The notes: generated by a model from the sequence alone, not told the origin. Shown: positions 12,190 through 49,136, counted from the whole stretch's first letter. The stretch is DNA of 61,310 bases, filler included, from Basidioascus undulatus (GCA_000826855.1; 5 parts of 5 records of this genome joined end to end with filler, not necessarily neighbours in it); one strand, 5' to 3'. Program-made: numbers and translations.

Positions 12190-12289
12190 NNNNNNNNNNN
12201 NNNNNNNNNNNNNNNNNNNNNNNNNNNNNNNNNTTAATTAATTAANNNNNNNNNNNNNNNNNNNNNNNNNNNNNNNNNNNNNNNNNNNN
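12190..12289. other. Artificial contig linker
   Basis: 44 N + TTAATTAATTAA (stops in all six frames) + 44 N. Confidence 0.98.
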
Positions 12290-20279: not shown

Positions 20280-22013
20280 TCAGTACTCGTGCTGCTGCGC
20301 GTACTGCTGCTGCTGCTGCTGCTGGGCTTGTTGTGCGTGCGCCTGGGCCTGAGACTGTGCTTGCGCCTGTTGCTGCTGGTACTGCTGCGGGACGGGAGGG
20401 TGCGGCTGCTGGGGAAGTGAGTTGGTGAACCTGTCCGATGCAGAGGGGTCAGTATGGTCCATCCGCGGAGGCTTGTCGAAATGCAGTTGAGAGAAAGGAA
20501 AGGAAGGAGAGAAAAAGAGGAAGCGGAAGGGACAGGGGCAAGGGGAAAGGGAGAGGGCGGAAGCGAGGAAGGAGGTAGGGGAAAGGAGAGGTAGAGAGGG
20601 GACGGAGACGCACTGCGAGCTGAAGTACGGATGCCTCAGCGCGTCCTCGGCCGAGATGCGCCGGATGGGGTCGAACTGGAGGAGCTTGTCGAGGAGGTCG
20701 AGGGCTGAGAGGGCGAGGGTGAGTTGCCCGTCCATGCGCGGAGGAGAAGGGACAAAGAGGAAAGAAGGGGCAGGTGACCGACCGAGAGGGTGCGCTTTCG
20801 GGTAGAGCTGCTGCCATGGGACGCGCGGGTGGCGGGGGAACGGGCGGAGTTGGATCTCAGGCTGTCGTTTCGTTCCACAAATCAGTCAGTCAGCCAGTCG
20901 AATACGGTTCGACTTCGACAAGGAGGAGTGTGCGCGTGGGCGTGGACGTGGACGCACCGACTCGGCCGCGATGCGCCTCAGCACGTCGTCGGACGGCGTG
21001 CCGACGACCTTCATGATGACGTTGAGCTGGTCGTTGTTGTCCCGGCCGCGGAAGAGGGGAACGCCCGACAGCATCTCGGCGAGGATGCACCCGGCCGACC
21101 AGATGTCGATGGAGGTACTGTACGTGCGCGAGCCGAGGAGAACGTCCGGCGCGCGGTACCAGAGGGTAACGACCTGAAAGGGGGCGGGGGGTCAGGTGGC
21201 TCGTACTTTGTGATATGGCGGAAAGCAAAGAAAAAAGAAGGGGGGCAGCGAGGGCGAGAAAGAGGCAGCGAGAAAAGAAAAAGAAAACGAGGCAACCGCT
21301 CACCTCGTTCGAGAACGTGTTGACCGGAATGCCGAATGCGCGGGCGAGGCCAAAGTCAGCGAGCTTGAGCTCGCCGCGCTTGTTGATGAGGAGGTTCTGG
21401 GGCTTGAGGTCGCGGTGGAGGACGCGGTTCTCGTGGCAGAAGGCGGTGCCCTTGAGGAGCTGGTACATAAACGAGCGGCACGTCATCGCCTCGAGCGCGC
21501 CCCGGTCGCCGTGCGTGTCCATGTACTGCACGGCGGCGAGTTGGGTGTCAGTTCTGAAGGGGAAGGGAGGCAGGGTGGGAGAGCGGCACCTTCTTCAAGT
21601 CCTGGTCCATGTGCTCGAACACGAGCATCAACTTCGTCTCGGTGTGGATGACGTCGTGCAGCCGGACGATGTTGGGGTGCTTGAGCTCCTTCATGAGGCT
21701 GATCTCGCGGATCGCGGTCGAGGGGGTGCCCTCCTCCGCGTCGAGGTGGATCTCCTTCAAGGCGACAATCTCGTTCGTCAGGCGGGAGCGGCCTTTGTGG
21801 ACAGAGGCATACTGCGGGGGGGATGCGGGGTAGTAGAGGGAAGGGGGAGGTTGGTTAGGGGGGAGAGAAGGGGAGGAAGGGAGGGAAGCGGAAGGAGAGG
21901 TCGCACAGTGCCCTCGCCGAGTTTCTCGAGCCTGCGGGGTGGGGAGTGGGCGTGTAAGGGAGAACGGTGAAACAGGGAGGTGGACTAGGGAACACGCACT
22001 GCACGTAGTTCAT
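20280..22013 (-). CDS. PHO85: Cyclin-dependent kinase Pho85 (CDK5-like) with Gln-rich tail
   Basis: [97 protein letters not shown]. Confidence 0.93.
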
Positions 22014-24472: not shown

Positions 24473-24572
24473 NNNNNNNNNNNNNNNNNNNNNNNNNNNN
24501 NNNNNNNNNNNNNNNNTTAATTAATTAANNNNNNNNNNNNNNNNNNNNNNNNNNNNNNNNNNNNNNNNNNNN
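24473..24572. other. Artificial contig linker
   Basis: 44 N + TTAATTAATTAA + 44 N. Confidence 0.98.
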
Positions 24573-31890: not shown

Positions 31891-33626
31891 TCAGGATCGC
31901 ACGGAGACGGTCTCGGCTGCCGAGTTGATGTGGTCTTGGAAGTAGGGATGCGTCAAGGCGCGCTTGGCTGGTCGTTGCGCACAGGGGATCAGCCGACAGC
32001 CTCGAGACCGAGTCAGGAATGAGGGAAGGCGCACCGGAAATGCGATGGGCGGGGTCGTAGATCAGCGTCGACTGGGAAAAAGGGCAGACGCGTCAGAAAC
32101 AGAAGCAGCAAAATACGAAGGCGGCAAGTGGGTCGTACTGCGAGGAGGTCGACGCCGTCCTCGTCGAGTCCAGGCACGGCCTTGGCCAAGTCGACGCGGT
32201 GCCATTGCGGGAAGGAGGTCTTGTAGTCCGGGAGCGCCTTGACGCCCGGCCAGTCGTCCTCCGTCGGCGTCCCCAAAATCCTGAGGTTGCGCGCATATCT
32301 CAAGTTCAGCGACCAGCAAGGGGGGATGCAGCAGTCCGAACCGAGACGTACCGGAAGATCTTGAAGATCTCGTCGATCTCCGAGTCGCCGGGGAAGAGCG
32401 GCTGGCGCATGACCATCTCGGCGAAGATGCAGCCCACGGACCACATGTCGATCGCGGTCGAGTAGTGCCTGCTGCCCAGCAGGACCTCGGGCGCGCGGTA
32501 CCACAGCGTGACGACCTGGCCTCCCGACACAGGTCAGAACTATCCATAGCGGCAGCTGGCGAGCGTCCCGCCGGAGGCGCACCTCATGCGTGTAGGTCCG
32601 CAAGGGAATGCCGAATGCGCGGGCGAGACCAAAGTCGGCGAGCTTGAGGTTGCCTTCCTTGTCGATGAGCAGGTTCTGGGGCTTGAGGTCGCGGTGGAGG
32701 ATGCGGTGCGCGTGGCAGAAGTAGATGCCCTTGACGAGCTGGTACGTGAATTTCTACGGGCACGTGAACGGGCGTGAGCACGTCCAGCTAAGCGGGTGGT
32801 ACGAGGAAGAGGGGACGGTGGACGCACCTTCACGATGTCGCTCCCCAGCCCCTCACGCCCATGCCCGACCGTGTCCATGTACCTCTTCAGATCGAGGTCG
32901 AGGAACTCAAAGACGAGGTAGAGCTTGGCATCCGAGTGAATGATATCGAGGAGACTGGGTGGACGGAAGCGAACGAATGGGAAGCGGCGTCAGTGGTCGG
33001 CCCAGTCTCCGTCGGCCTCGAGGCTGTGAAACGCCCAGGAGCACCCGTTCGTTCTTCCCCCGAGCCTGCCCCTGCTGCAGGAGTGCGCCTCTCCCGACCG
33101 CCAGCAGGGCGAGCCGCAATACGATGCGTATTCGAAAGAGTCGCGTGTCGCCAGCGACTCGAACGCGACGTCGAAACAGCCGCTCCAGCAAAGTGAGACA
33201 GGCCGACCCGTGAGCGCGTGTCTCAACGGGTGCTCCCTCCACGAGCGTGCTCTCCTCCGGTCCCACCCTCCAGCCAGCCGAGAAGAAGGAACACCGCGCA
33301 CTCACCGGACAATATTGTCATCCTTGAGCTCTTTCAGCAGGCTGATCTCGCGGATGGCCGTGCTCGGCACGCCCTCGTCCTCGGCCTCGAGCCGGATCTT
33401 TTTGAGCGCCACGACCCGGCCGGAGCTGACCTCGCGGGCCTTGTACACAACACCGTACGTGCCTGCAGTGGATCCAAGAGTTCAGGGGAGGTAATTGTGG
33501 GAGGTAGATGCAGAACGGGCGGACCTTCGCCGACCTGAAAGCGCAGGGAGGGCGAGCTGTCAGCTTGGGTGCGAGCCTGGAGGTGGGGGCCGGACGGACC
33601 TTCTCGAGTCGCGTGTAGTTGTCCAT
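31891..33626 (-). CDS. CDC28: Cyclin-dependent kinase 1 (Cdc28/Cdc2)
   Basis: [87 protein letters not shown]. Confidence 0.95.
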
Positions 33627-34812: not shown

Positions 34813-36755
34813 TCACCAATGCGCCGAGTAGATATCCTTGCACACATCCTCCGGCAGCCGCTCGCCAGGGTTGTGGGGAATGAACCCGAGCTCCAGCCCG
34901 CGCTTGTACGACCACTCGGCAGCCTGCTCGTTCTGTCCATCCAACCGTCCACGCACCATCTTTTCTCATCAACGCATACTCAACCTCCTCAAAGAGTAAA
35001 GCGCAACGTACCTTCCAAGTCCAGAAGAACCACCCCTGGCCCGCCAACTCCCACGTCTGGACCCTGTTCCATCGCCCCTCCATCAGTGAGTTTCACCAGG
35101 CAACGGCATGCCAATGACGCAACGCCCAGGGGAGTGACGTACTGCGCATCGTAGAACTTGCGCAAAAAGGACTTGTACGACGCCGAGAAGTCGTCGCCGC
35201 TGCCTGTCTTGCCGGCGCACGACCCGACGGCCGGCGCGCCAGGGTACGTGCCGTCGTGCCGCGAGCCGGTGCGGCGGCCGTTCTATCGAAAGTTGAGAAA
35301 GAAGAACTGAGTGAGCATTGAGGAGCGAGGATGGAGGGAGAGAAGGGGGAGGGGAGGAGGAGCGACGCACGAGGTACAGCGCGCAGTCGGTCGGCGCGAG
35401 GGAGAACTCGCCCACGATCACGGCGTGCGGGGACTCGACGATGTCGTAGAAGCGGTTGCACATGACCTGCAAGCCAACCACCGCACCGAATCAGCCTCCA
35501 TCCGAAGCAAGCGTCCCGAATCAGCCTCCATCCGAAGCAAGCGTCCCAAGGCAACGCACATTGATCCGCTCCTGCTCGCCCATCGCGTTCTCTTGGGGCG
35601 AGAAGACCGAGTAGATGTGCTATCCTCCCCGCCACAAAACAATCAGACTTCCCTTTCCACCGGCCTGCGATCTCGAGCAGAGAAGGTGAAGCGTACCGTA
35701 TCGAGCTGCACGCCGTCGTACCCCTGCGCGGGCGTCATAAAGTCCTTCCACTGGCTAAGCGGCTTAAACGCATCATGAATGACCGTCCGCAGGCCGCGCT
35801 CGTTCGTCACCGTCCGGTACCCCTCGAGGTAGTACTGCCGCGCGGTCTCGACAACCATCTCGTCTATGAACCCCGCCGGCTGGTACCCCCAAGCCCCACT
35901 CAGCTTGGGAAATTGCGGAGAGGGGATAGACAGACGCACCTCATTAACAAGCTCGATAGACTCCACCGCCCCCGCGTACTCCGCGCGCGAAAACTCGCGC
36001 GCAAGGTAGTCGATCACGCGCAGGCTGCGCAGCTTGTTCTGCTCGTCCATGTGCCACGTCGCTTCGCCCCAGTGGCCCGAGTTGTCGAAGCCGTTCTGCC
36101 GGGGCGCACGTGCGCGTTAGGGCCTTCGCCTTCACCAGAGAGGGAGGGAGGGAGGGATAGGGCAGACGGACTTGGGAGCCGGGCACGCCGTGCAGGTCGA
36201 CCCAGACTTTCAGACCGGCCTGTTGAGCGAGACGCGTGAGTCAAAAGCCGGGAAGAAGGATGGGCTGTGCGGAAGGAATGAAAATTAACGTACCGCCGCG
36301 GCCCACTTAACGCCCTGTTTCAAGTACGGCAACTGCCCCGTGCAGTACGGTTCGCCCTCGCCCATCTCCACCGCCCTGCTCATGCGCCTCCCCGTTAGCC
36401 AATCCTCAACCTTCCACACTCAGGCAGGGCGGAGCAAGGGAAGGGGTGGACGTACCAGTACCCCACCGGAATCCTGACATGCGTCAGTCCCGCCTGCCTA
36501 ATTTCCACCAAATCCCGGTACCCATAGAAAGTCTCCCAGTGCTGTGTGATCCGCGCGCGCGCGTCGGCGCGCTCGGCCCGGGAGGAAGCGCCGCACCCGA
36601 ACGTCCATTCGTCGACGGTCGAGGGGGAGGGGAAGAGCGAGGGGGTGATCCATGGCTGGGGAGGAGCGGGGTATTAGCTGCTATGTCATGGGACTATGGG
36701 GAGCGGGAAAAGACGCACCTGAGTCACGCCCAGGTTGAACAGGCCCATAGCAGTC
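34813..36755 (-). CDS. GH5 exo-1,3-beta-glucanase (Exg1-like), 5'-partial
   Basis: GWITPSLF, AGLTHVRIPVGY|W, VWVDLHGVPGSQ|NGFDNSG, IELVNE|P (acid/base Glu), VIVGEFSLAPTDCA (nucleophile Glu), GWFFWTWK. Confidence 0.92.
35486..35547. repeat. Perfect 30-bp tandem duplication inside a glucanase intron
   Basis: CCGAATCAGCCTCCATCCGAAGCAAGCGTC x2 at 35486 and 35516. Confidence 0.95.
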
Positions 36756-36855
36756 NNNNNNNNNNNNNNNNNNNNNNNNNNNNNNNNNNNNNNNNNNNNT
36801 TAATTAATTAANNNNNNNNNNNNNNNNNNNNNNNNNNNNNNNNNNNNNNNNNNNN
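36756..36855. other. Artificial contig linker, followed by a 23-G run at the contig start
   Basis: 44 N + TTAATTAATTAA + 44 N; G run at 36856-36878. Confidence 0.98.
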
Positions 36856-37238
36856 GGGGGGGGGGGGGGGGGGGGGGGCGTGTAGAGATGTAGGATTGTC
36901 GAAAGGAGGGGAACTACTTCAGCTGGCAATGGACGATCTTTCAACACTCTGACAGTCGAGGGCCTCTGTCAAGATGATCAGCAGCCGTTATGTTGTTGTC
37001 TCTGAGTCCTCTCGGTTGACTCCAAAGTTTCTGGCACGAAATCATTCATCGCACCGTACTAGCAGGCACCTGGGTGTGCGAACCGAGAAACAAGTTACAT
37101 TCAGTCCTCACCCGTATCCGCATCCGCGTCTCGCTCTCGCGACTCGCCGCTTGCCCCCTTCTTTCTCTTTCTCTCCCCCAATCCAATCATCTCTCCAAAC
37201 TTCAAGAATCAACCCCTCCTTCACATGCTTTAGCGCGT

Positions 37239-38240
37239 CCTCAGGGTTGCGCTGCTCTACGGAGCTCTCGCGTTTGTTCAGCTCACCGCCACTCTCCGCA
37301 GATTGCTCTGTATCCGCCATCGATGCCCCTGCCCTCCCTCCAAGGTCCAAGTATCAAGACTCTTCAACGGAGAACGAGTGCCTCCTTCGCTCACGCCCTT
37401 TCGCGCCTCCTCAGGGTTGCGCTTTCCCAGGGAGCTGTCGACCAGCTGTCGACCAGCGCATCGCATTTCTTGTGTAACGTACCCACTCTCCGCAGATCTC
37501 TCGATAGGCCACCACAACCTCCATTTGATACATGAAAACAAGTAAAAGCACGAAATATCGAACAAGCCTTTCCCTTCTCGAGCTTCCTCAGGATTGCGCC
37601 GCTCTACAGACTGTCGGACAGCGATCACATCTTGCGTCCGTTCAACTCAACCGCTCTCTGCAGATTGCTCGGAACCCCAGCTTGGTGCCCCTTCAAGACT
37701 AAAGCCCAAATTCAAGGATCAAGAATCTCCGTCTACCCTTCCGTCTTGCGCCACCGCAGTGTCGCGTCGCTCTACGCTGTGTAAGGATCGGCCCTTTCCA
37801 AAGGAAAGGCCAGACTTGGATGGAATCGAACCAGCATCACGTGCACTAACCATTGTGCTACAAGCCCTTATTTGCTGATCTCAGTCCAAGGGTAGACCTC
37901 CGCCCTAACAAGCTGTCTACAGCGCGACTTGGGTCTGTCCCACTCACCCGCTCTCCGCAGACTTCTCGATAGCATATTTCGCTTTTTCTAGCCCAAGTAT
38001 TCAAGGATAAAACTGAAAGGCCTAACAGCTACGCTACTTCCCTCGGTGTTGCGCCGCTTCACGGAGCTGTCAAACAGCGTGTGGATCTTGTGGCTCTCCC
38101 ACTTACCCGCTCTCCGCAGATCTTTCGGTAGCACTCCTGTATTTCCCTTCGCCCAAACCACGAGAAATAAGAGACTAGAAGAAAGACACAACAACTTCTT
38201 GGGCCTCCTCAGGTTGCACCGCTCTACGGAGCTGTCGGAC
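37239..38240 (-). repeat. Six-unit ~170-bp array with two conserved complementary boxes and variable spacers
   Basis: Box 1 (+ strand consensus CCTCAGGGTTGCGCCGCTCTACGGAGCTGTC) starts at 37239, 37409, 37586, 37754, 38041 and 38207. Box 2 (CTCTCCGCAGA) at 37292, 37486, 37654, 37951 and 38110. Confidence 0.9.
37780..37910 (-). mobile_element. 131-bp solo-LTR-like insertion containing a tRNA-like Pol III promoter
   Basis: TGTAAGG...CCTAACA termini; flanks cGCTG / AGCTG (degenerate 5-bp TSD); splits box 1 of array unit 4. Minus-strand A box TAGCACAATGG (37850-37860) and B box GGTTCGATTCC (37822-37832). Confidence 0.8.
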
Positions 38241-38977
38241 TACTCACTGTCAGCAGTTGCCGGCTAATGCGTTGCTGAAGATCGACGGTGCGTTGCCTCG
38301 TATCTTTCCATTGATTTTTCCTCATGTCTGTGCCCTGACAATCTGGGATATGGATACTATACGTGCCATAGGCTGCGAAGGTTGATGAGGGAATCAGGTT
38401 GAAGAAGGCGGGGGCAAGTCGTGGTATGGTGCGTTGTCATGGGTTGGCTCTAAGTGCGGGCACCAGTGCAGTATTGCAATGCGCCCTCACTACTGAGTGA
38501 AGTGCTGTGCAGGAACGAGCTGTTGTTGAAGGGCTGAAAAGGTAGCCATGCCAGTGCTTAATTTGGACTTGTTCTCCGCGGCGACGACTTGCGGAGGGCT
38601 GCAACCCCGCTGCACAGGATCAACCCGGCCGATGCTGTCTGATAAGAGAAGGAGAGTGTATATTTCGGTGTTTTCTGGTTCTTTGCACAAAGAAGTCGAC
38701 GAAAGTGATCTCGGTTGAGGCGGCAAGTTTCCATGCGAGAAGACGCCCCGCAAGTCGATCACTCATCAAGTGCGCACTTTGCAGCCGACCAGCCAGCCGG
38801 CCCATGGGAAAGCCGTTTAGCGTTGCATTCGCCCCTTCGCCTCCTGCCTTCAGTTTCACACTTCGCTTAACGGTACTCTTCGCCCTTTGCATCGCATCTT
38901 GCTGGTCCACGGGGGTGCAGAGCCCCTTTTTTAAACACCACAACCACGGGCGTTCAACACGCTACTCTCGGTCGATA

Positions 38978-41900
38978 ATGGCCTCTCAACACCCGTACGA
39001 TCTTGCCGTCCAGCCTCCACCTGCCCAGCCACAGCCACACCACACCCAGCTCCTCCCCTTCGACCCCACGCGACCTATACTCCCCTCACACGCTGCGCCA
39101 GCCTCGGGCTCGGGCGTGAAGGTGGCCGAGAGCAGGGCGAGGAAGAAGGAGAAGGACGAGGAGGGCGAGGAGGCGGTCAAGCGGCGGAGTACGAAGGGTG
39201 AGTCTACTGGAACGGGGGAGGGGATGGAGGAGGTCGGGCATGAAGACGGAGAAGGACAGAGTACTGAAGTTGGGAGGGGGTGTTCAGCTTGCGATCACTG
39301 TCGGAAGTGCAAGTGCAAGTGCGCGAGACCGGAGGGTCAGACGACCGGCCCGTGCGAGAATTGCATCGCCTCTGGCGTTGGTGCGTCTTCTCTCCCAACA
39401 CTGCTCATAATCTTCACATTACGATGCTAAAATTCCGTGAATCACAGAATGCACTTTCAACGGGGTCAGCAAGAAGCGGTACGGCTCTTCTCCCTGCCTT
39501 CCTCCCGCCCCTCAAGCTCCTCATCTCATCCGCACTCTCTCGCACCTTCCCAGCGGACCACCCAAAGGCTACATTGAGACGCTATCCGACAAGCTGCGCC
39601 GCCTGGAAGACGTCGTCTCCCGCCTGTCTACCCTCCCCGACGCGTCTATCGTGATTGACGCGCTGCGCGAAGACCCCGCGACGGCCGAGCTGCTCGCGCC
39701 CGTGCTCGAGAAGCAACAGCAGGCTGCGGGTGTCGCATCTTCCTCCAAGGCCCCTGGGTCGTCAAGTCCGCGCCAGCGCAGGAGACTCAACAGCGTCGTC
39801 GGCGCTGGGGCGGGGTCGGTCCAGCAGCAGCAGCGGACGGTGGTCGTCCCGCCCGAGATCAGCGATGAGGATCCCACGGACGCGGATTTGGCGGACGTGG
39901 TGGGCCAGCTGAGCTTGGACGAGAACGAGAATCTGCGCTACCACGGAACCGCGAGCGGTGAGTGCTGCATGTCCCCATTCCGGCTTTTATGACACGCGAG
40001 ATCTGATGGCGAGTGTGCGCTGTGCAGGACTTCATCTGATCAGTCAGAACAAGCGGCACGAGGGTGGGATATGGTGCGGCGCATGACTGCTGTGTCATTG
40101 CGCTGGCTGCAGAGCTGACGGCTTGCATTGCAGGCGCCTACCTCGACCTGGTGTATGGCCGGCGTCGCACGAGCTGCCGCAGATGTCGGAGCAAGACGTC
40201 GTCCGCGTCTCGGGGGCGCGGGATGTGCTTCCCGAGCGGCGCGTACAAGAAAACCTGATCGAGCTGTATTTCACATACGTCCACCCTGTGAGCATCGGAA
40301 GCACTATTGTATCCCAGCAGGGTGCTGAGGCTTCTCTCCATACCCCAGGTCTTCTCCGTCATCCACAAGTCCGCCTTCCTCCGCGCCTTCAACGAGTCCA
40401 CCTCCCCGGCAGCCTCCCCCCGGTCCGACGCAGACCCCGAGCCCGTCTCGATCCTCCTCCTCCTCGCGATCTTCTCCCTCGCGAGCCGGTACTCGTCCGT
40501 CGACAGCCCGCAGCCCGCCGTGTTCTGGTCTGCCGGCGTCCGCTACGTCGAGAAGGCCAAGGAGATGATCTACCTCGACAACCCTGCTAGCCGCCTCTCG
40601 TCCGTCCAGGCGCAGCTGCTGCTGACGTACAGGAGCTTGGGCGTGGGCGACATGAAGGCTGGATGGCTGTTCTTGGGCGCGGCGGTGCGGATGGTAAGTT
40701 CGGGCTTGGTCGTGCTGCTGTATGTGGGATGGAATATGGGATCGTTGCTGATGGATTGGGAATGGGACATCGAACGCAGGCGGAGGACATAGGCTTGCAT
40801 CGCGATGTGGCGAAGTACGTCCCTGTCGGCAAGGCTCGGATAGGTCCCGAAGAGATGGAAGCTCGCAAGCGAAGTGCGTCTCCAGTCCGTTTTGCGCTTC
40901 TCCGCGGCTGCAGCTAATCATCAACCGCGCGCGCGCGCAGCATGGCACTGCTGCGTCGTGCTCGACACGTACGTCTCGAGCTTCATCGGCCGGCCGACCG
41001 CAATCCACTACAGCGACCACGATACGCGACTGGCCTCCGAGGGCGAGGTACGTTCCGGAGCTTTCTCATTCCTAGGAGCCACATCGCTCGACTGACGTGG
41101 GAGCGCGCTGCAGATCGAGGAGCACGAAGCGTGGCAGCCGATCGAGGCGCACGTCAGCTGCACGCGCGACGCCTGCAGCCTCAACGACCCGGACAACCTC
41201 TTCAACTGGTCCGTCCCGCAGACGAGCCACGCCCTGTCGTGCTTCAACCGCTTTGCCACCCTCTGTGCGTGTCACCTTATGCCTTCCTCCTCCGTCTCGC
41301 TGAACCGTGGTGTGGGCTCGGACACGACAGCTACGTTGCAAGCGCGCATACTGGAAAAGATCTACAACATCCGCGGGCGCCCGTCCGGCCAGCCGGGCGA
41401 GCAGATCTTGACCTACTTCGATCAGGCGCTGTCGCGCTGGTTCTTGGACCTCCCGCCGTACCTCAAGTACCAGCCCACTGCCGAGCGTCTGCCCCCGCCG
41501 CATATCCTCTCGCTGGTGCGCGCTCATGCTGATCGGTGCGACTGGCGGATCAACGAAGCTCACGAAGTGGACGGTCGGATAGCATTGCGCATTCTACTGC
41601 ACTCTCAATCTCCTCCACCGACCCTTGTGAGTTGCGCGTCCGCTTGTCCTGCCCTGGACGAGACTCATGCGTTTGGCCTCGCACAGCATCCCTCCGCGCG
41701 GCACCGCTGGAGCGACGTCCGCTTTTCCATCGCACGCTATTGCGACGTTCGCAGCCAACAGCATTACGAGCATTGGTACGTTGCTCCATCTGTGCGATGA
41801 GGCAGAAGCAATTTTGCGGGTGTTGATGGGAGGCGTGCGGCTTCGCAGTGACGACACTCGAGCGCCGGCACGGATTTCTCAAAAAGAGCCCGGCGACGCT

Positions 41901-42993
41901 CATCTACTACATCTTCACCGCCGGCGTCATGCACTGCTTCAACTTGAGCTACCCGGACCTCGAGATCGTCGCGCGCACGAATCTCAAGCGGACGATGGAC
42001 GCCCTGCGCGGGATGGAGGTGCGTCGGCTCATTCATTGCTTGAACCTCAGGTTCAAGTGAATAACTGGCAACTTTGACCGCTTTGGCTTGACAGCTTGTC
42101 TGGCCCGCCGCCGGCCGCTCGCACGATCTCCTCGCCGGTCTCGTCGACCTACGCGAGCCCGACCTCGTCCAGCACGCGGCCGGTCCGCGCGGGATCAAGC
42201 GCGTGGGGGACACACCCGACGACGGCGCGCCGTACCGCTTCGGCACGAGCTCTTCTGCTGCCGTGTTGCCCACTTCCATCCCCGCTTCGGCGTTTGCCCC
42301 GCCTCCGCAGCCGCTGCGCCAGCCGCCGCCGCGCCCGCAACCGCAGCAGATGTCGGCGAGCCCGACGCTCGGTGCGGGAATCCCAAGCCCCTCTGCGCCC
42401 GTGCAATTCGGCCAGCACCAGCGCGACTCGTCCTTCGACGGCGGCAGCGCGAATGGCCGTGCACCGCCCGCGTCGCTCGCGCAGATGTCGCCCGTCGGCT
42501 CATACGAGTCTGCTCGCTCGTTCGCATACCCCTCACGGCCGGCGGGACCGTCGCAAAGCCCGCTGCAACAGCAGCCGCAGCAACAACAGCAGTCCCCACC
42601 TCAGCCGCAACAGCAGCAGCCACAGCCTCCTCCAAACGAGTACGCGATCGCGTACCCGCTCCCGCTTGCCGCGACGGATGGGGACGGCGCGTGGGCGCCG
42701 TTCCTGCAGAACCAGGGCGTCGCCGAGCTGCAGTGGACGGGCTACCCCGCCCAGCCAGCCGCGCAGGCACCGCAACAGCACCAAGCGCACGCCGACTTGA
42801 ACGCCGTGCTCTTTGGCCATCATCCGTCCGGCCCGCACGGGCTCGATGGAGGCATGGGAGGCGTCCAGGATGGCTCTGCGCTGCCAGGGTCGCATGAACT
42901 GCTCGGTGCGTCGATTTCCGTGCGCGTTCAACGGACTACAGGCCAGCTCCGCTTACTCTTGGTCCAACAGGCGTCCACCGCGTTCCGCAATAG
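38978..42993 (+). CDS. Zn(II)2Cys6 transcription factor with fungal-specific TF domain
   Basis: ACDHCRKCKCKCARPEGQTTGPCENCIASGV|ECTF, GPPKGYIE, LIELYFTYVHP, GAAVRM|AEDIGLHRD, WHCCVVLDTYVSSFIGRP. Gln/Pro-rich C-terminus. Confidence 0.92.
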
Positions 42994-43871
42994 CACAACA
43001 GGTCGTTACCAGCTTTTTGATTCTTCCTTCCTTAAATGATTTACATGTCCTTTTCTTCTCCGCTTGACTTTCCTCGTCGCACACTCGCTACGCTTTTGGG
43101 ATCAGATGTTGTACTTTCGATACACGCCGCTTTCATCGCATGTCTTCTCATCGCGTGATAGCGCCGTGACCTTCCATCGCTGAACTGAAAAGACCCAACG
43201 CGCCGGAAATGTTCAAGGCACTGTCTCAGGCCATGATTTGCCTCCGAGAATGCTCGGCGGCCAGCCACTGATGATCACGATGAGGCGTGGGGGCGGGAGC
43301 GTCGCCGATCAGCCATCAGCCAGACCACACTCGCTACTCCACTTGTCACCCGCAAATGTGGCAAGGTCGTTCTTCAGTACACCGTTGAGAACGTGCAGAG
43401 AGCCCTCGCCACCTCGTGATAGACGGACCGCTCCACCCCGACAGCACCAACAGCGCGACCTCGCTCATCGCAGTCTTTTGGGAGGGTCCTTGGTCTGTCT
43501 CGTGCAGCCTTTGGAACATTTTTCGTACTCTATCTTGCGATCCTAATTTGCGGTTGGGTCTTACGTCGCGGTAGGCCAACAATGTATGAGAACACTATCA
43601 ACCGGAGCGCCCCGCAAGACGACGTCATTGCGAGAAGACGCACCTTCTCGCACTCCTCACCTCTCGACGCTCCGTCTGGCCCCCGATTCGCCTACGTAAA
43701 GACCGAGAAGGCCTTTTCGCTCCACTGATTTCCATCACTTCCACATTAGGCACTGGCCGCCCCAGCTTCTTGACTTTCTTCCACTACAATCACCCACGAC
43801 CACCCAGAACGACTAGACCTCCCTCAACGACACTCCCGTATCCTTCCTTCCTCACTTAGCTGTAGACAACC

Positions 43872-45494
43872 ATGATCTCCTCCGCTCAGCAGGCCCGCAA
43901 CGACCGCCGCCGCTCTTCCGCAGTGCAGTCCCAGCGCCGCCGCTCGTCGGTCCAGCAGCTCGCGAAGCCCCATGTCCCCGCGCGCCCTGACCAGTTTCAG
44001 GACCCGCCCATCCCCAAGCCTGAGGACATCAAGATGATCCGTGAGTCTTCGATTTACTAGCCTGAAGGCTAGGTAGCGTAGAGCGCTCAGAGAGGAACGG
44101 CGTCTCGCAGTGTCCGACGTTGACGGGACGCTCTTCGACGACGACCACGAGGTCCACCCGCGCACCCGGAACGCCCTCCTGTACATCCGCAAGCACCACC
44201 CCAAGATCCCCATCATGTGCGTTATCACTTGAGAGATTCATGATCAAAAAGCTGACCCGAAGTCCTGTTGCCTTCCGAACACAGCCCTGTCACCGGCAAG
44301 CAGCTCGTCTCCTGCGAAACGCTGCGCGAGGAGTGCGAGCTCGACCAGATGCCCGCGGGCTGCTGTCACGGCGCTATCATCTACAACCCGGACGGTACTG
44401 TTCAGACGCAGCAGGGCATCAAGCCCGAAACGGTTCTCGACGTCGTGGACATGATGGTGAAGCAGTACGTACTCTAGGAAAAGTTATGTGGGCATCTCGC
44501 TGATGCAGCGAGGGGGGCTCTTCTGCAGCAACAAGACGTGCATGCTTTATGAACACGACAAGGTCTCATGTGTTTCTCTTGAGGAGCGCCCGGACAAGGA
44601 CTTCTTCGAGATCTCGAAGGGTAAGTCGATCATTCATCTAGATTGCCGGACGTGTAACTGATCGAACTCTTGGCTTAGGCTTTGACCCTTCTATTGTGGA
44701 CGCCCGGGGCACCGATTTCCTGCAGAAGGTCAAGTCGGGCGAAGTCGTCATCAACAAGATCTTCATGCCGATGGAGGAGACTGTCATCGAGGGTGCGTTC
44801 CTGTTCTTCGTCTTGTCCTTCGAGGCGATTGCTCACTCGGCAGAGCGTTTCGTCCCTCTATTCAGACTTCATGATTCTCCTCGATCACGAGCCTCGCTTT
44901 CCGGTTGGCTCGTTCAAGATGACCCGCGCTCTGCCGTACATCATTGAGCTCGTTCCTCCCTCAGTCGACAAGGGTACGTAATCTTCATCTTGCACTGCCT
45001 GCCGCTGCGACCCCTTGCTTATATACGGCTTGTTCTCACTTGGCAGCCGTCGCACTTGCGCACTTCTCCGGGCACTACAACATTCCGGCGGAGAACATCA
45101 TCACTTTCGGTGACGGCGAGAACGACGGTTAGTCACTGACTTGACACATAGGCCTCTTCGGATAGCTGACAGTCTGGGCATCCACAGTCGGCATGTTCTC
45201 TGCGGCGGGCTACTCGGTCGCGATGGGCAACGCCATGGCGAAGCCCCGCGACACTGCAACGTACCACACCGTCACCAACAACGAGGTAAGGCCACACTGT
45301 ACCTTGTGGCATGGAGTAGCAGCTTATCTTGGCTTTTTTGTCTATCAGGGCGGTGTCGGCTTATTCCTTGATAAGGTAAGAACTTCGAACCCGCTTTCAC
45401 TAGCCCTCCTGCAGTGCCTTACGCACCTCCCCCACAGGTCTTCCGTCCCGACTATGTTCCCAGTGCAGAGGAGACCTCTGCCGTTGAGCTGTGA
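43872..45494 (+). CDS. Cof-type HAD-superfamily hydrolase
   Basis: SDVDGTL (motif I), PVTGK, VDKG, ITFGDGEND|VGMFSAAGYSVAMGNA, TNNE|GGVG. Confidence 0.9.
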
Positions 45495-46122
45495 TGGGAT
45501 CGCTCTTGTTGATTGAAGTTTGCATTTGAGAAGAAAGTAACGCATGGAGACGAGACGGACTGCACATAGAGCCGCGTAGCTTACTCGCTCGCATCATGAC
45601 AGGCAATGCATCGTTTGACTTTGCATCACCACACCACCGCAGTTCCTGAGGAATGTTCTTTGCTGAGTGGTGTTGCTGAGTGTTAGAAAGTGCCGCCGCA
45701 ACGATCAGACTCGAACGCCTGCAAGTCCAGACGTTCGTCTGATAGTCCCGCCGTGGCCCCTAATTGCCACCGTTAACGTTGTCACTCTCGCTGGTGGACT
45801 TCTTTGTATTTATCTCCGTTATTTTCCTTCATTATGCGAGGGCCTCCAATGCACATTCCAATAAATACTGGATATAGAGCTCGCAGAAACATGCTGATGG
45901 AGCGTCTCAAGGATCGAAGAAGGCCAGGCCTGGAGCAGGCCAATCTATGACGTCAGTGAAGGCTGCATGGACGAGCACGCGGACAGACGCGACAGGCTTG
46001 ATGAGGCTGATGAGGCTCGCCGTGTCCTCCACTTCCCCAGCGTTGCCAACGCATCTTTCCCTCCTACCACAACCATCCCAACCCCGCATTCAACCCACAC
46101 ACAAACCCCAGAACAATACACC

Positions 46123-47167
46123 ATGGCCGCCGCCCTTGCTCAGAACCTCGCCAACAAAGTCGCTTCCGCGGCTCAGAGCATCGTCCCCGCGAAGCCCGGC
46201 TCCAAGCTCCCTTCCTGTATGTCCACGCGTCGCTCTTGGTCCGGGGGCAGACGGCAGTGGTCCTCATGAGACGCTCTTCAGACCCCCTTAAGAAGAACAA
46301 CCCTGACACTGTTGTGAACCTCGCCGAGTCCAAGGGCAAGGTAGCCAGGAGCAAACCTTGGGCCTGACTTCCTTCAGACGCTGACGATGTTCCTTTCCCC
46401 TTACCCAGATCCTCGTATGTTGAAGATTGATCCGGGGGAAGGCACTTGTAGCTAACGTGAATCTGCAGATTGTGGGCGTGCCCGGCGCGTTCACGCCGCC
46501 GTGCTCCAGCCAGGTCCCGGGCTACATCCAGGACTACGAGAAGTTCGCGGCCAAGGGAGTTCACCACATCTGCACGTCCTGTTCATCTTTAACGCTTCAA
46601 GCATCTTCTTAATGGTCCGGTACACATGTAGACGTCGTCCCAATCAACGACATCTTCACCGTCAACGTAAGTGTCACGGCTCATCATCACGCCATCCTGA
46701 GTTGAGGAAGTCGAGCTGAACAAAACCCTTTTGGTAACCAGGCTTGGAAGGAAAAGCTCGGCAAGGATTCGAGGGTCGAGTTCCTGGCTGACGGTGCGTG
46801 CCGCGACTTATTTTCTGCGGGAGGCTGCAGCTTGCTGATGCTCATGGCCTTTCACAGATACCGGCAACTTCACCCGCTCCGCGGGTCTCACATTCGACGC
46901 CACGGGTCTTCTCGGCGGTGAGCGTGCCCAGGTATGTTGTTGTCTTCCTGCGGTGGGATCGTCGACGAGCTGACAGCCTGTTCGACCTCTACTAGCGCTA
47001 CGTCATCGTCGCGCAGGACGGCGTCGTCCAGTCGCTCGTTAAGGAGGACGAGGCGCCTTCTGTCACCGTCACCGCTTCCGACAAGTAAGTAGTGATTGAC
47101 TTTGCGAGCTGCTCGCCAGGTCAAGTCACTGACGCTCCCTCTCCATAGGGTCCTTGCCTCGCTTTAA
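46123..47167 (+). CDS. Prx5/Ahp1/Pmp20-type peroxiredoxin
   Basis: KGK|IL|IVGVPGAFTPPCSSQVPGY, YVVPINDIFTVN|AWK, FLAD, Q|RYVIVAQDGVV. The frame is open when a 6-nt microexon and a GC-AG intron are used. Confidence 0.92.
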
Positions 47168-47642
47168 GTCAAGGTCCAGGGTTAACGGGCAATATTCCCA
47201 TATCGACTGTACTTATACCTGTGACGAGAACAATGTGAAATGAAAGACCATGACCTTTCATGATTCCGCGCCCTCCCGCTGTGTCCCGTTGCTCGACTGC
47301 CCGGAACATAGTAGCTTACAGTTGTTCCGACCCACATTGGCCCGCACTATGGATCTCACATACACTTTTGACGTCAACTCGAGCCATGCGCTGATCGGGT
47401 TCGTTGTCCATCGTTCTGAGGCGAGACGGCTTCTCGAACGCACGCAGTCGGGCGCCCACTTTCTGTCTCTCCTCCATCTCCAGCCTCCATTAACCTCCAA
47501 GCATGCTCGCCCGTGCTATACTTCTCGTGTTCGCTAAATACGTTGGTCTCGCAGGAGCGCAAGATGTTGATCCCGGACTAACACGGTCAGTGGCCGCGAT
47601 ACTGCACTGAGAAAGCAGGCCCTGACACAGGAGTCTCGCCTC

Positions 47643-48552
47643 CCTAGCCTCCGTCCCTTACTCAAGTCCGTGTTATTCCTAGGCACTCTTAGGAACACAG
47701 TCTCACCTCTTAAGGGATTGATTCACACATCAACGCAAACAGTGTCAGCCAGCACAGCTATCCTGGAAAGGCGGGAAAGGACCATATTGTACGTCTCTCA
47801 CTGACCCCTCGGTCAACGCCTCATCCTAAGGCACGCTGACACGAACAGTGGGGATGGACGCTGAGCAAACATCAACATCGTCCCTGGCGGTGAACCGTCT
47901 GCCCCACCTTTCGCGAGTCTACCGAAGCAGGACGATGGCACGACCAGTTATATCTCGGTGGGTGACTGCGTCGTTCGACTGTTGGCGGGGCGCAAGCTGA
48001 TGAACTGAAGCCATGGGGATATTTAGACCGTCAACGTTCCCGGGGACACCGACGTAACAATCGCGCTCAACGCGGGCGGGCAGCTGGCCTACACCAGCAC
48101 CGTCAAGGTGGCGAAGTCTTTGGACGACAGCGGTCGTTGTGCGTAACATCCTACTCCTCCGATACACTCGGATGAATGACGTAATATTCTGGTATTTATT
48201 CAACTTCATATGCCACGGTGCAGCCGACTCAGCCGACTCAGCCGCCAGTTCTGGGCGACAGTGGTGGCGGGTCGGACGACGACAGTGGAGGCACGACCGA
48301 CGACGACAGCGCAAGCAGCGACGCTGCGAGTCCGACACAGGAAGATCCGTATGTCTCTCTACAACGCATTCAATCCCAGCTAAGCTGGGGCCGGTACTCA
48401 ATTTTGAATCTTACAGGGCACCTGCCGAAATGCCGGCGCTCCAGCAGCGACGACGGACCGGCCGCGACGCAACGGCAGTACCCCCAGCTCCGACGCAGCT
48501 CCTCATAGTTCTCTGCGTCGGGATTTTGGTAACGATGATGATTTCTTGCTAG
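47643..48552 (+). pseudogene. Basidiomycete secreted/GPI Ser-Thr-rich protein relic
   Basis: QCQPAQLSWKGGKGPY | INIVPGGEPSAPP | TVNVPGDTDVTIAL..GQLAYTSTV, then an S/D/T-rich linker and hydrophobic tail LLIVLCVGILVTMMISC*. No in-frame ATG; CAA where a CAG acceptor is needed (47866-47868). Confidence 0.65.
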
Positions 48553-49036
48553 ATGCGGTGCTCTTGAAGGGCTCACCGTATGTTCTTTAACTTGCATAAT
48601 TGCCATGTACTTCCTTCGCGCTATCCTGCACCACTGTACCACTGCACGATTGTATCACTATATCCATATGCTTCATGCATCCTGATAGTTTCTGCGATGC
48701 GTGCCATCACCTGCACAGTTGACCCCCGATACTTTTTCTTAGTCTCATTTTTGACCCTGCCAGTATAAATGTACGTCGCTAGCACCATGATAAGCAGAGC
48801 AACAAATTGCGGTGCAGAATGGCGTTTTAGGAGGTCGTCTATAATACAGGAGTACATTGTAGCATCGAAATAAGGACGGTGGAAGAGGGGAACGTAACGA
48901 GAACGGAAGCCTGGAAGTCTATGGCCAGAGGAAGAATGCGTGTGCCGGATTCAAAGGCCGTCGTCTCTAATAGCAGTGGTGCACCTCCTTCTCGCCCTCC
49001 CACTTCATCTCAGATTGGCGGCCCGGCTTGCAGCTG

Positions 49037-49136
49037 NNNNNNNNNNNNNNNNNNNNNNNNNNNNNNNNNNNNNNNNNNNNTTAATTAATTAANNNNNNNN
49101 NNNNNNNNNNNNNNNNNNNNNNNNNNNNNNNNNNNN
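49037..49136. other. Artificial contig linker
   Basis: 44 N + TTAATTAATTAA + 44 N. Confidence 0.98.

Follow-up and report, generated by a model that had tools for sequence, protein, structure and literature searches.

The window, by which we mean the whole 61,310-base stretch of Basidioascus undulatus DNA that was analysed, consists of five ~12.2-kb pieces separated by spacers, each made up of 44 Ns, the string TTAATTAATTAA and a further 44 Ns. As the window is composite, features are not to be read across the joints, which lie at the following positions:

12190-12289: spacer joint
24473-24572: spacer joint
36756-36855: spacer joint
49037-49136: spacer joint

The insertion with which we are concerned, at 37780-37910, is located in piece 4 (36856-49036), some 925 bases from its start. 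Nearly the whole of this piece is covered by a 12,117-nt contig from a public DNA run. It opens with a poly-G run of 23 nt (36856-36878), probably an artefact of sequencing or assembly where the contig ends. The GC content is 60%, and the contigs amount to ~35 Mb (about 35 million letters in each of the public DNA runs X1 and X2, which contain the stretch and from which the assembly was probably made).

We observed that an ORF at 38705-39430 contains a cysteine motif, which we take to be of the Zn2Cys6 type, that another at 40292-40789 matches the Pfam family Fungal_trans, and that the genes of the window are split into many short exons. In addition, a conserved HAS1-helicase exon shows 94-96% identity to proteins of basidiomycetes, most of them Pucciniomycotina and Tremellomycetes yeasts, and a dynactin-p62 exon matches Agaricomycetes only, at ~40% identity; a further protein search gave no match. 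Taken together with the GC content, these features mark the DNA of the window as fungal, and the two exons assign the host to Basidiomycota without deciding its class. A scan of 230 window ORFs of at least 110 aa (88 + 142) recovered no reverse transcriptase, integrase or transposase domains, a 61-kb window being a very small sample for judging the presence of an autonomous partner. Elsewhere in the window, two protein-kinase genes, at 21326-21466 in piece 2 and 32605-32745 in piece 3, display 88.7% identity over 141 nt with weaker likeness around, and are likely to be paralogues.

Two features frame the insertion:

37239-38380, unstranded: array of six to seven diverged ~170-bp units; the target of the insertion, not part of the element
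38978-40800, plus strand: Zn2Cys6 / Fungal_trans transcription-factor gene with short introns

The transcription-factor gene starts ~1.1 kb downstream of the insertion, and the array together with the putative solo LTR falls within its upstream region. The spacings within the array are 170, 177, 168, 287 and 165, and an alignment of seven array units places ~131 extra bases in unit 4 (37754-38040) alone. The empty site is seen in 6/7 units, with the consensus CTCTACGGAGCTGTCG, just as the original prediction had held for the flanking units.

The inserted element and its sister copies

What is observed is an insertion that has integrase-type ends and a short duplication and belongs to a small family with a conserved tRNA-like core. 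The parts of the copy at hand are as follows:

37780..37910, minus strand: whole inserted element, 131 bp, read as a solo LTR, 5' TGTTAGGG ... CCTTACA 3'; in 1/7 array units
37904..37910, minus strand: LTR 5' terminus TGTTAGG, inverted relative to 37780-37786
37868..37903, minus strand: variable, U3-like leader between the terminus and the tRNA-like module (43 nt including the 7-nt terminus)
37811..37867, minus strand: tRNA-like module (Rfam RF00005) of 57 nt, made up of acceptor stem, D arm and T arm
37850..37860, minus strand: A-box-like motif TAGCACAATGG, called from the sequence
37822..37832, minus strand: B-box-like motif GGTTCGATTCC, separated by 17 nt from the A box upstream of it
37790..37811, minus strand: hairpin GGCCTTTCC-TTT-GGAAAGGGCC, directly after the tRNA-like module
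37780..37789, minus strand: 3' tail and terminus GATCCTTACA, of which TGTAAGGA (plus strand) is kept in 3/3 sister copies
37775..37779, unstranded: left copy of the target-site duplication, CGCTG, 4/5 against the right copy
37911..37915, unstranded: right copy of the target-site duplication, AGCTG, 4/5 against the left copy

On the plus strand, the element opens with TGTAAGG (37780) and closes with CCTAACA, which gives TG...CA ends and inverted termini that match at six of seven positions. The left duplication copy, CGCTG, adjoins a site at which 3 nt of the array consensus are missing. In the minus-strand reading, the order of parts is TGTTAGGG, the leader, a tRNA-like module in the sense orientation, a pyrimidine-rich hairpin tail and ...CCTTACA. 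The original prediction of a 131-bp TG...CA insertion with 6/7 inverted termini is borne out by the sequence, as is the degenerate AGCTG duplication, the two copies of which agree at four of five positions beside the 3-nt loss.

A search with the covariance models of Rfam (cmscan/Infernal) matched the tRNA model RF00005 to minus-strand positions 37811-37867. The score, 39.8 bits, exceeds the gathering score of 29 (E-value 4.1e-06 in 4 kb and 6.3e-05 in the whole window). The match spans all 71 model positions, with 15 of them, those of the anticodon arm, replaced by 0 bases. The module pairs as an acceptor stem GGGCTTG/CAAGTCT, which has a G3-U70 pair, a D stem GCAC/GTGC and a T stem GCTGG/CCATC with one mismatch; a 7-nt linker, ACGTGAT, takes the place of the anticodon and variable arms, and the gap between the A box and the B box is 17 nt. 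ARAGORN reported 0 tRNA genes in the window, as expected of a module devoid of the anticodon arm. A complete tRNA gene was accordingly rejected as a candidate: the cloverleaf wants an anticodon arm, ARAGORN made no call and cmscan skips 15 positions. Even with E-values of up to 10 admitted, Rfam returned no 5S rRNA match within 36000-40000, and no ribozyme was found in the element.

Thermodynamic folding yielded no excess stability for the 57-nt module (z 0.11) or for the whole element (z -0.02), the signal being absent for the whole element on either strand. Hence, the tRNA likeness rests on the covariance model rather than on stability. The hairpin region, in turn, reaches -12.7 kcal/mol within the 30-nt stretch 37786-37815, with a z-score of -2.43 and 7/200 shuffles as good. 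Both the minus-strand parts that had been proposed (acceptor stem, D arm with A box, T arm with B box and only ~7 nt in the middle) and the hairpin at 37790-37811 following them are found in the sequence. Runs of four or more T on the minus strand are absent from the element and the next 60 nt, which argues against a free-standing Pol III gene and fits a read-through design.

We then compared the stretch 37480-38210, at 80% likeness, with the Logan contigs of the two public DNA runs (X1 and X2), and recovered three further partial copies at ~92% identity, each on another contig and each seen in both runs. The element is hence present at at least four loci in the genome, with one copy per contig. 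Sister copy 1 aligns to 37780-37869, differing in 6 letters and by one A inserted behind 37799, in the hairpin loop, and its alignment starts exactly at 37780, the proposed left terminus. Sister copies 2 and 3 match 37800-37874, with 6 other letters each. Beyond these alignments, the flanking strings are loose ends, that is, consensus strings of 30 letters drawn from two contigs with an agreement of only 0.68-0.82, and they were compared by eye. Before 37800, those of sister copies 2 and 3 show TGTAAGGA, a slightly different hairpin arm and different flanks, and also carry the extra A in the hairpin loop. Beyond 37874, one loose end has a leader ~20 nt shorter (about 37875-37894 being missing), closes with ...AACA, with 11/16 letters as in the last 16 of the element, and then passes into an unrelated flank; by eye, this shorter sister copy measures ~112 bp. 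As the loose ends are poorly agreeing consensus strings, the right-hand boundary rests on at least one sister copy and not on all. The original prediction had named a single copy, or copies with SINE-like variable tails, as the outcomes that would speak against it; what we found is at least four copies, with the TGTAAGGA terminus shared before the flanks diverge.

Across the family, the tRNA-like module, the hairpin and the 3' tail are conserved and the leader varies. All three sister copies differ from the 37780-37910 copy at 37820 and 37839, and the change at 37820 gives a fully paired T stem, GCTGG/CCAGC, in each of them; one has a further change at 37834, which would keep the T-stem pair as U-G. 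The pairing of this stem in 3/3 sister copies implies that the family founder had an intact T arm and that the 37780-37910 copy has decayed. At the four loci, we detected no second LTR, primer-binding site or polypurine tract, with three of the contigs extending from 375 nt to >10 kb on either side. The occurrence of single copies on long contigs implies that there is no second LTR at a TRIM-like distance, assuming that a second piece in the same record would be listed. Within the 61-kb window there is likewise no second copy, blastn-short having given the element itself and chance words of at most 13 nt. Exact patterns drawn from the junction of the D and T arms had 0 matches in JGI metagenome contigs (two patterns) and 0 in prokaryotic genome contigs; since such patterns need exact matches, they say little on relatives in other species.

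Helenus-like layout and rival readings

Helenus elements are miniature LTR retrotransposons with tRNA-derived sequence in the LTR (Kojima 2024, PMC10886601). Those of fungi are reported from rusts, Agaricus, Coprinopsis and Amylostereum, with LTR lengths of 106-284 bp among the Table S1 entries covered and with 5-bp duplications, and many of their families survive as solo LTRs only; the same paper states that no Helenus was found in Microbotryum, Leucosporidium or Rhodotorula (PMC10886601). The consensus LTRs run from tgtt(a/g)... through a leader and a sense tRNA-like part in the 3' half to a T-rich tail and ...aca, and their origin is proposed to lie in the insertion of a SINE into an LTR (PMC10886601). 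Copia has been proposed to mobilise the fungal elements, on the strength of the 5-bp duplication, and the use of Pol III is unproven for Helenus itself (PMC10886601). The plant Cassandra and nemertean Ajax elements are likewise miniature LTR elements with a fragment of a Pol III gene in the LTR, and in Ajax, too, no more than the promoter part of the source RNA is retained (PMC10886601); they differ in that the source gene is 5S rRNA rather than a tRNA, the present element being without a 5S match. The original prediction had named both the 5S sequence in the LTRs of Cassandra and the tRNA-like sequence of Helenus, correctly so by the same paper (PMC10886601).

The element resembles Helenus (TRIMp3) in its TG...CA ends, its TGTT(A/G) start and a sense tRNA-like part with A and B boxes in the 3' half, and, by eye against the consensus LTRs, in a pyrimidine-rich tail ending ...ACA (PMC10886601). 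Its 131 bp, like the ~112 bp of the shorter sister copy, falls within the range of 106-284 bp (PMC10886601). A degenerate duplication, at 4/5 and with 3 nt lost next to its left copy, would accord with the 5-bp duplications of the fungal families, as would survival in the form of a solo LTR (PMC10886601). The closest Helenus elements by size have LTRs of ~110-130 bp, as in Helenus-9_PSt (112 bp) and Helenus-4_PTrit (130 bp); in the former the gap between the A and B boxes is ~31 nt by eye, in contrast to 17 nt in the present element without an anticodon arm (PMC10886601). Further differences are that its tail has no TTTT run, that the host is a GC-rich non-rust basidiomycete and that ~4 copies were detected.

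These comparisons were made by eye and with exact-word searches. The D-arm region agrees by eye with the tRNA-like part of Helenus-6_PGr at 17/20 positions (PMC10886601), which may reflect only a similar source tRNA. In the published consensus file DataS1, exact words of 11-14 nt from the module gave matches for 0/3, tgttaggg had 1 match, at a consensus start, and ccttaca had 3, none at an LTR end (PMC10886601). Judged from sequence, the candidate's membership in Helenus is hence a matter of shared layout and not of demonstrated descent. Also to be set against it is the observation that the host's best named HAS1 exon matches include yeasts of groups in which, by the same source, Helenus was not found (PMC10886601).

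Nevertheless, as its anatomy follows the order of parts of the published consensus LTRs, we favor, as a probable though by no means secure interpretation, that 37780-37910 is the decayed solo LTR of a Helenus-like (TRIMp3) miniature non-autonomous LTR retrotransposon (TRIM). In this respect, the solo-LTR claim of the original prediction is supported: the insertion, the TG...CA ends, the ~5-bp duplication and at least four copies agree with it. Two-LTR copies, primer-binding sites and polypurine tracts were not seen at the four loci. We posit that a two-LTR parent would have been copied in trans, with the reverse transcriptase and integrase supplied by an autonomous LTR element, for which Copia is a candidate. 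Integration into one of the ~170-bp array units, ~1.1 kb upstream of the Zn2Cys6 gene, would have duplicated 5 bp of the target, recombination between the LTRs would have left a single one, and the 37780-37910 copy would subsequently have gained private mutations, one of them breaking the T stem. The tRNA-derived segment, with its A and B boxes kept and its anticodon arm lost, may have served in the parent as an internal Pol III promoter. This last step is the weakest, because the two boxes are unusually close: one paper gives an A-to-B-box spacing of ~30-40 nt as typical for tRNA-type promoters (PMC12498455), against the 17 nt seen here, and a Pol III promoter function of the module, which the original prediction had inferred, is thus doubtful.

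It is this spacing, together with the proposed SINE-into-LTR origin and the unproven use of Pol III in Helenus (PMC10886601) and the lack of excess folding stability in the module, that lends some weight to an alternative in which the insertion is a solo LTR or LTR-like element but its tRNA-like piece is a passenger without a promoter role, the parent being transcribed by Pol II like ordinary TRIMs. Such a passenger could be what remains of a tRNA pseudogene or tRNA-derived SINE that had entered an ancestral LTR and was afterwards deleted in its middle. We regard this as unlikely: the A and B boxes are both intact, and the tRNA-like part and the 3' tail form the conserved part of the family, with the leader as the variable one. 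Moreover, the T stem is fully paired in 3/3 sister copies (in one of them via U-G), which suggests some constraint on the module while the family spread. The boldest proposal, to which we attach only a slight probability, is that the minimal tRNA, with its G3-U70 acceptor and its D and T arms, acts as an RNA and not as a promoter, by way of retroelement tRNA mimicry. Such an RNA could provide a signal for RNase P or RNase Z cleavage or for CCA addition that sets the RNA ends, or could alternatively be a chargeable minihelix. The paired T stem of the sister copies (3/3, one with U-G), the conservation of module and hairpin and the 17-nt gap between the boxes are all compatible with it. Retrozymes, which are non-autonomous and carry a hammerhead in their LTRs, similarly house a small structured RNA motif inside the LTR (PMC10886601) and offer a precedent for an RNA-level role of a motif so embedded; their motif is a self-cleaving ribozyme, whereas none was found in the element.

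The inverted termini (6/7) and the short duplication, along with the single state of every copy seen, might also suit a MITE, that is, a non-autonomous DNA transposon with TG...CA inverted repeats that was moved by an integrase-like DDE transposase and had captured a tRNA fragment. The Ginger-type element exemplifies a mover of this kind. The lack of reverse transcriptase or integrase domains in the 230 window ORFs, a small sample, points the same way. However, inverted termini of 7 nt are what LTRs usually have and would be short in a MITE, the TGTT(A/G)GG start, the ...ACA end and the internal order are as in Helenus LTRs (PMC10886601), and no transposase partner is known, on account of which we hold such an origin to be improbable.

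SINEs start at their tRNA-like head, end in A-rich or simple-repeat tails and have variable duplications. With tRNA-derived SINEs (SINE2) the element shares a tRNA-like head that bears A and B boxes, a short length and interspersed occurrence in several copies, so that an internally deleted SINE of this type, or a retroposed tRNA pseudogene that suffered such a deletion, deserves consideration. It differs from them in having a 43-nt leader upstream of the tRNA-like 5' end and inside the insertion, such that the module is not at the 5' end of the element, in its fixed TG...CA ends and in a short duplication of ~5 bp; furthermore, there is no A-rich or simple-repeat tail, ...CCTTACA being conserved in all copies seen. 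The 43-nt leader and the fixed ends largely refute this explanation, which we consider very improbable. An equally meager probability attaches to a family of small-RNA genes, each encoding a ~95-nt RNA with a minimal tRNA-like domain and a hairpin, in which the look of an insertion would be coincidental. Such genes would be consistent with the module and hairpin as the core conserved across copies, with the maintained T stem and with the acceptor G3-U70, but they sit poorly with the lack of a T-run terminator in or after the element, with the signs of insertion (the empty site in 6/7 units and the duplication), with the disrupted T stem of the 37780-37910 copy and with the 0 matches of the junction pattern in JGI metagenome contigs. 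As a separate matter, a trypanosomatid-type tRNA-like promoter for an adjoining small-RNA gene was rejected, the window being fungal and Rfam placing no such gene beside the element.

The Helenus kind of element is known already; what would be new, if the preferred reading of a Helenus-like solo LTR holds, is a low-copy, decayed candidate member with an unusually truncated tRNA part in a non-rust basidiomycete. If confirmed, it would extend Helenus-type elements to a GC-rich, non-rust basidiomycete, and would indicate that the tRNA part can be reduced to A and B boxes 17 nt apart while the family still spreads. Such copies exceed the tRNA threshold of Rfam and can be misannotated as odd tRNA genes or pseudogenes, and tiny solo LTRs near genes may bring binding sites for Pol III factors into promoters. 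Otherwise, a single decayed copy is ordinary genomic debris.

The units of the target array

The units of the array share a conserved core of ~90 nt. On the minus strand, a 9-bp stem, UCUGCGGAG / CUCCGUAGA, is kept in each of the four units compared, with G-U pairs in 4/4 and one double (compensatory) change; the same stem read on the plus strand would carry A-C mismatches. A splice-site-like GTRAGT...ACAG lies between the halves of the stem, and one half-stem, which lost 3 nt, has the LTR-like insertion at its edge. Rfam gave no match for the units of the array (37239-38380), which is possibly a minus-strand cluster of non-coding RNAs. The core (37631-37670 and 38041-38075) is also present elsewhere in the same genome, on other contigs, one of which is short and has a depth ~2.5 times that of the main contig; hence, the unit family extends beyond this locus.
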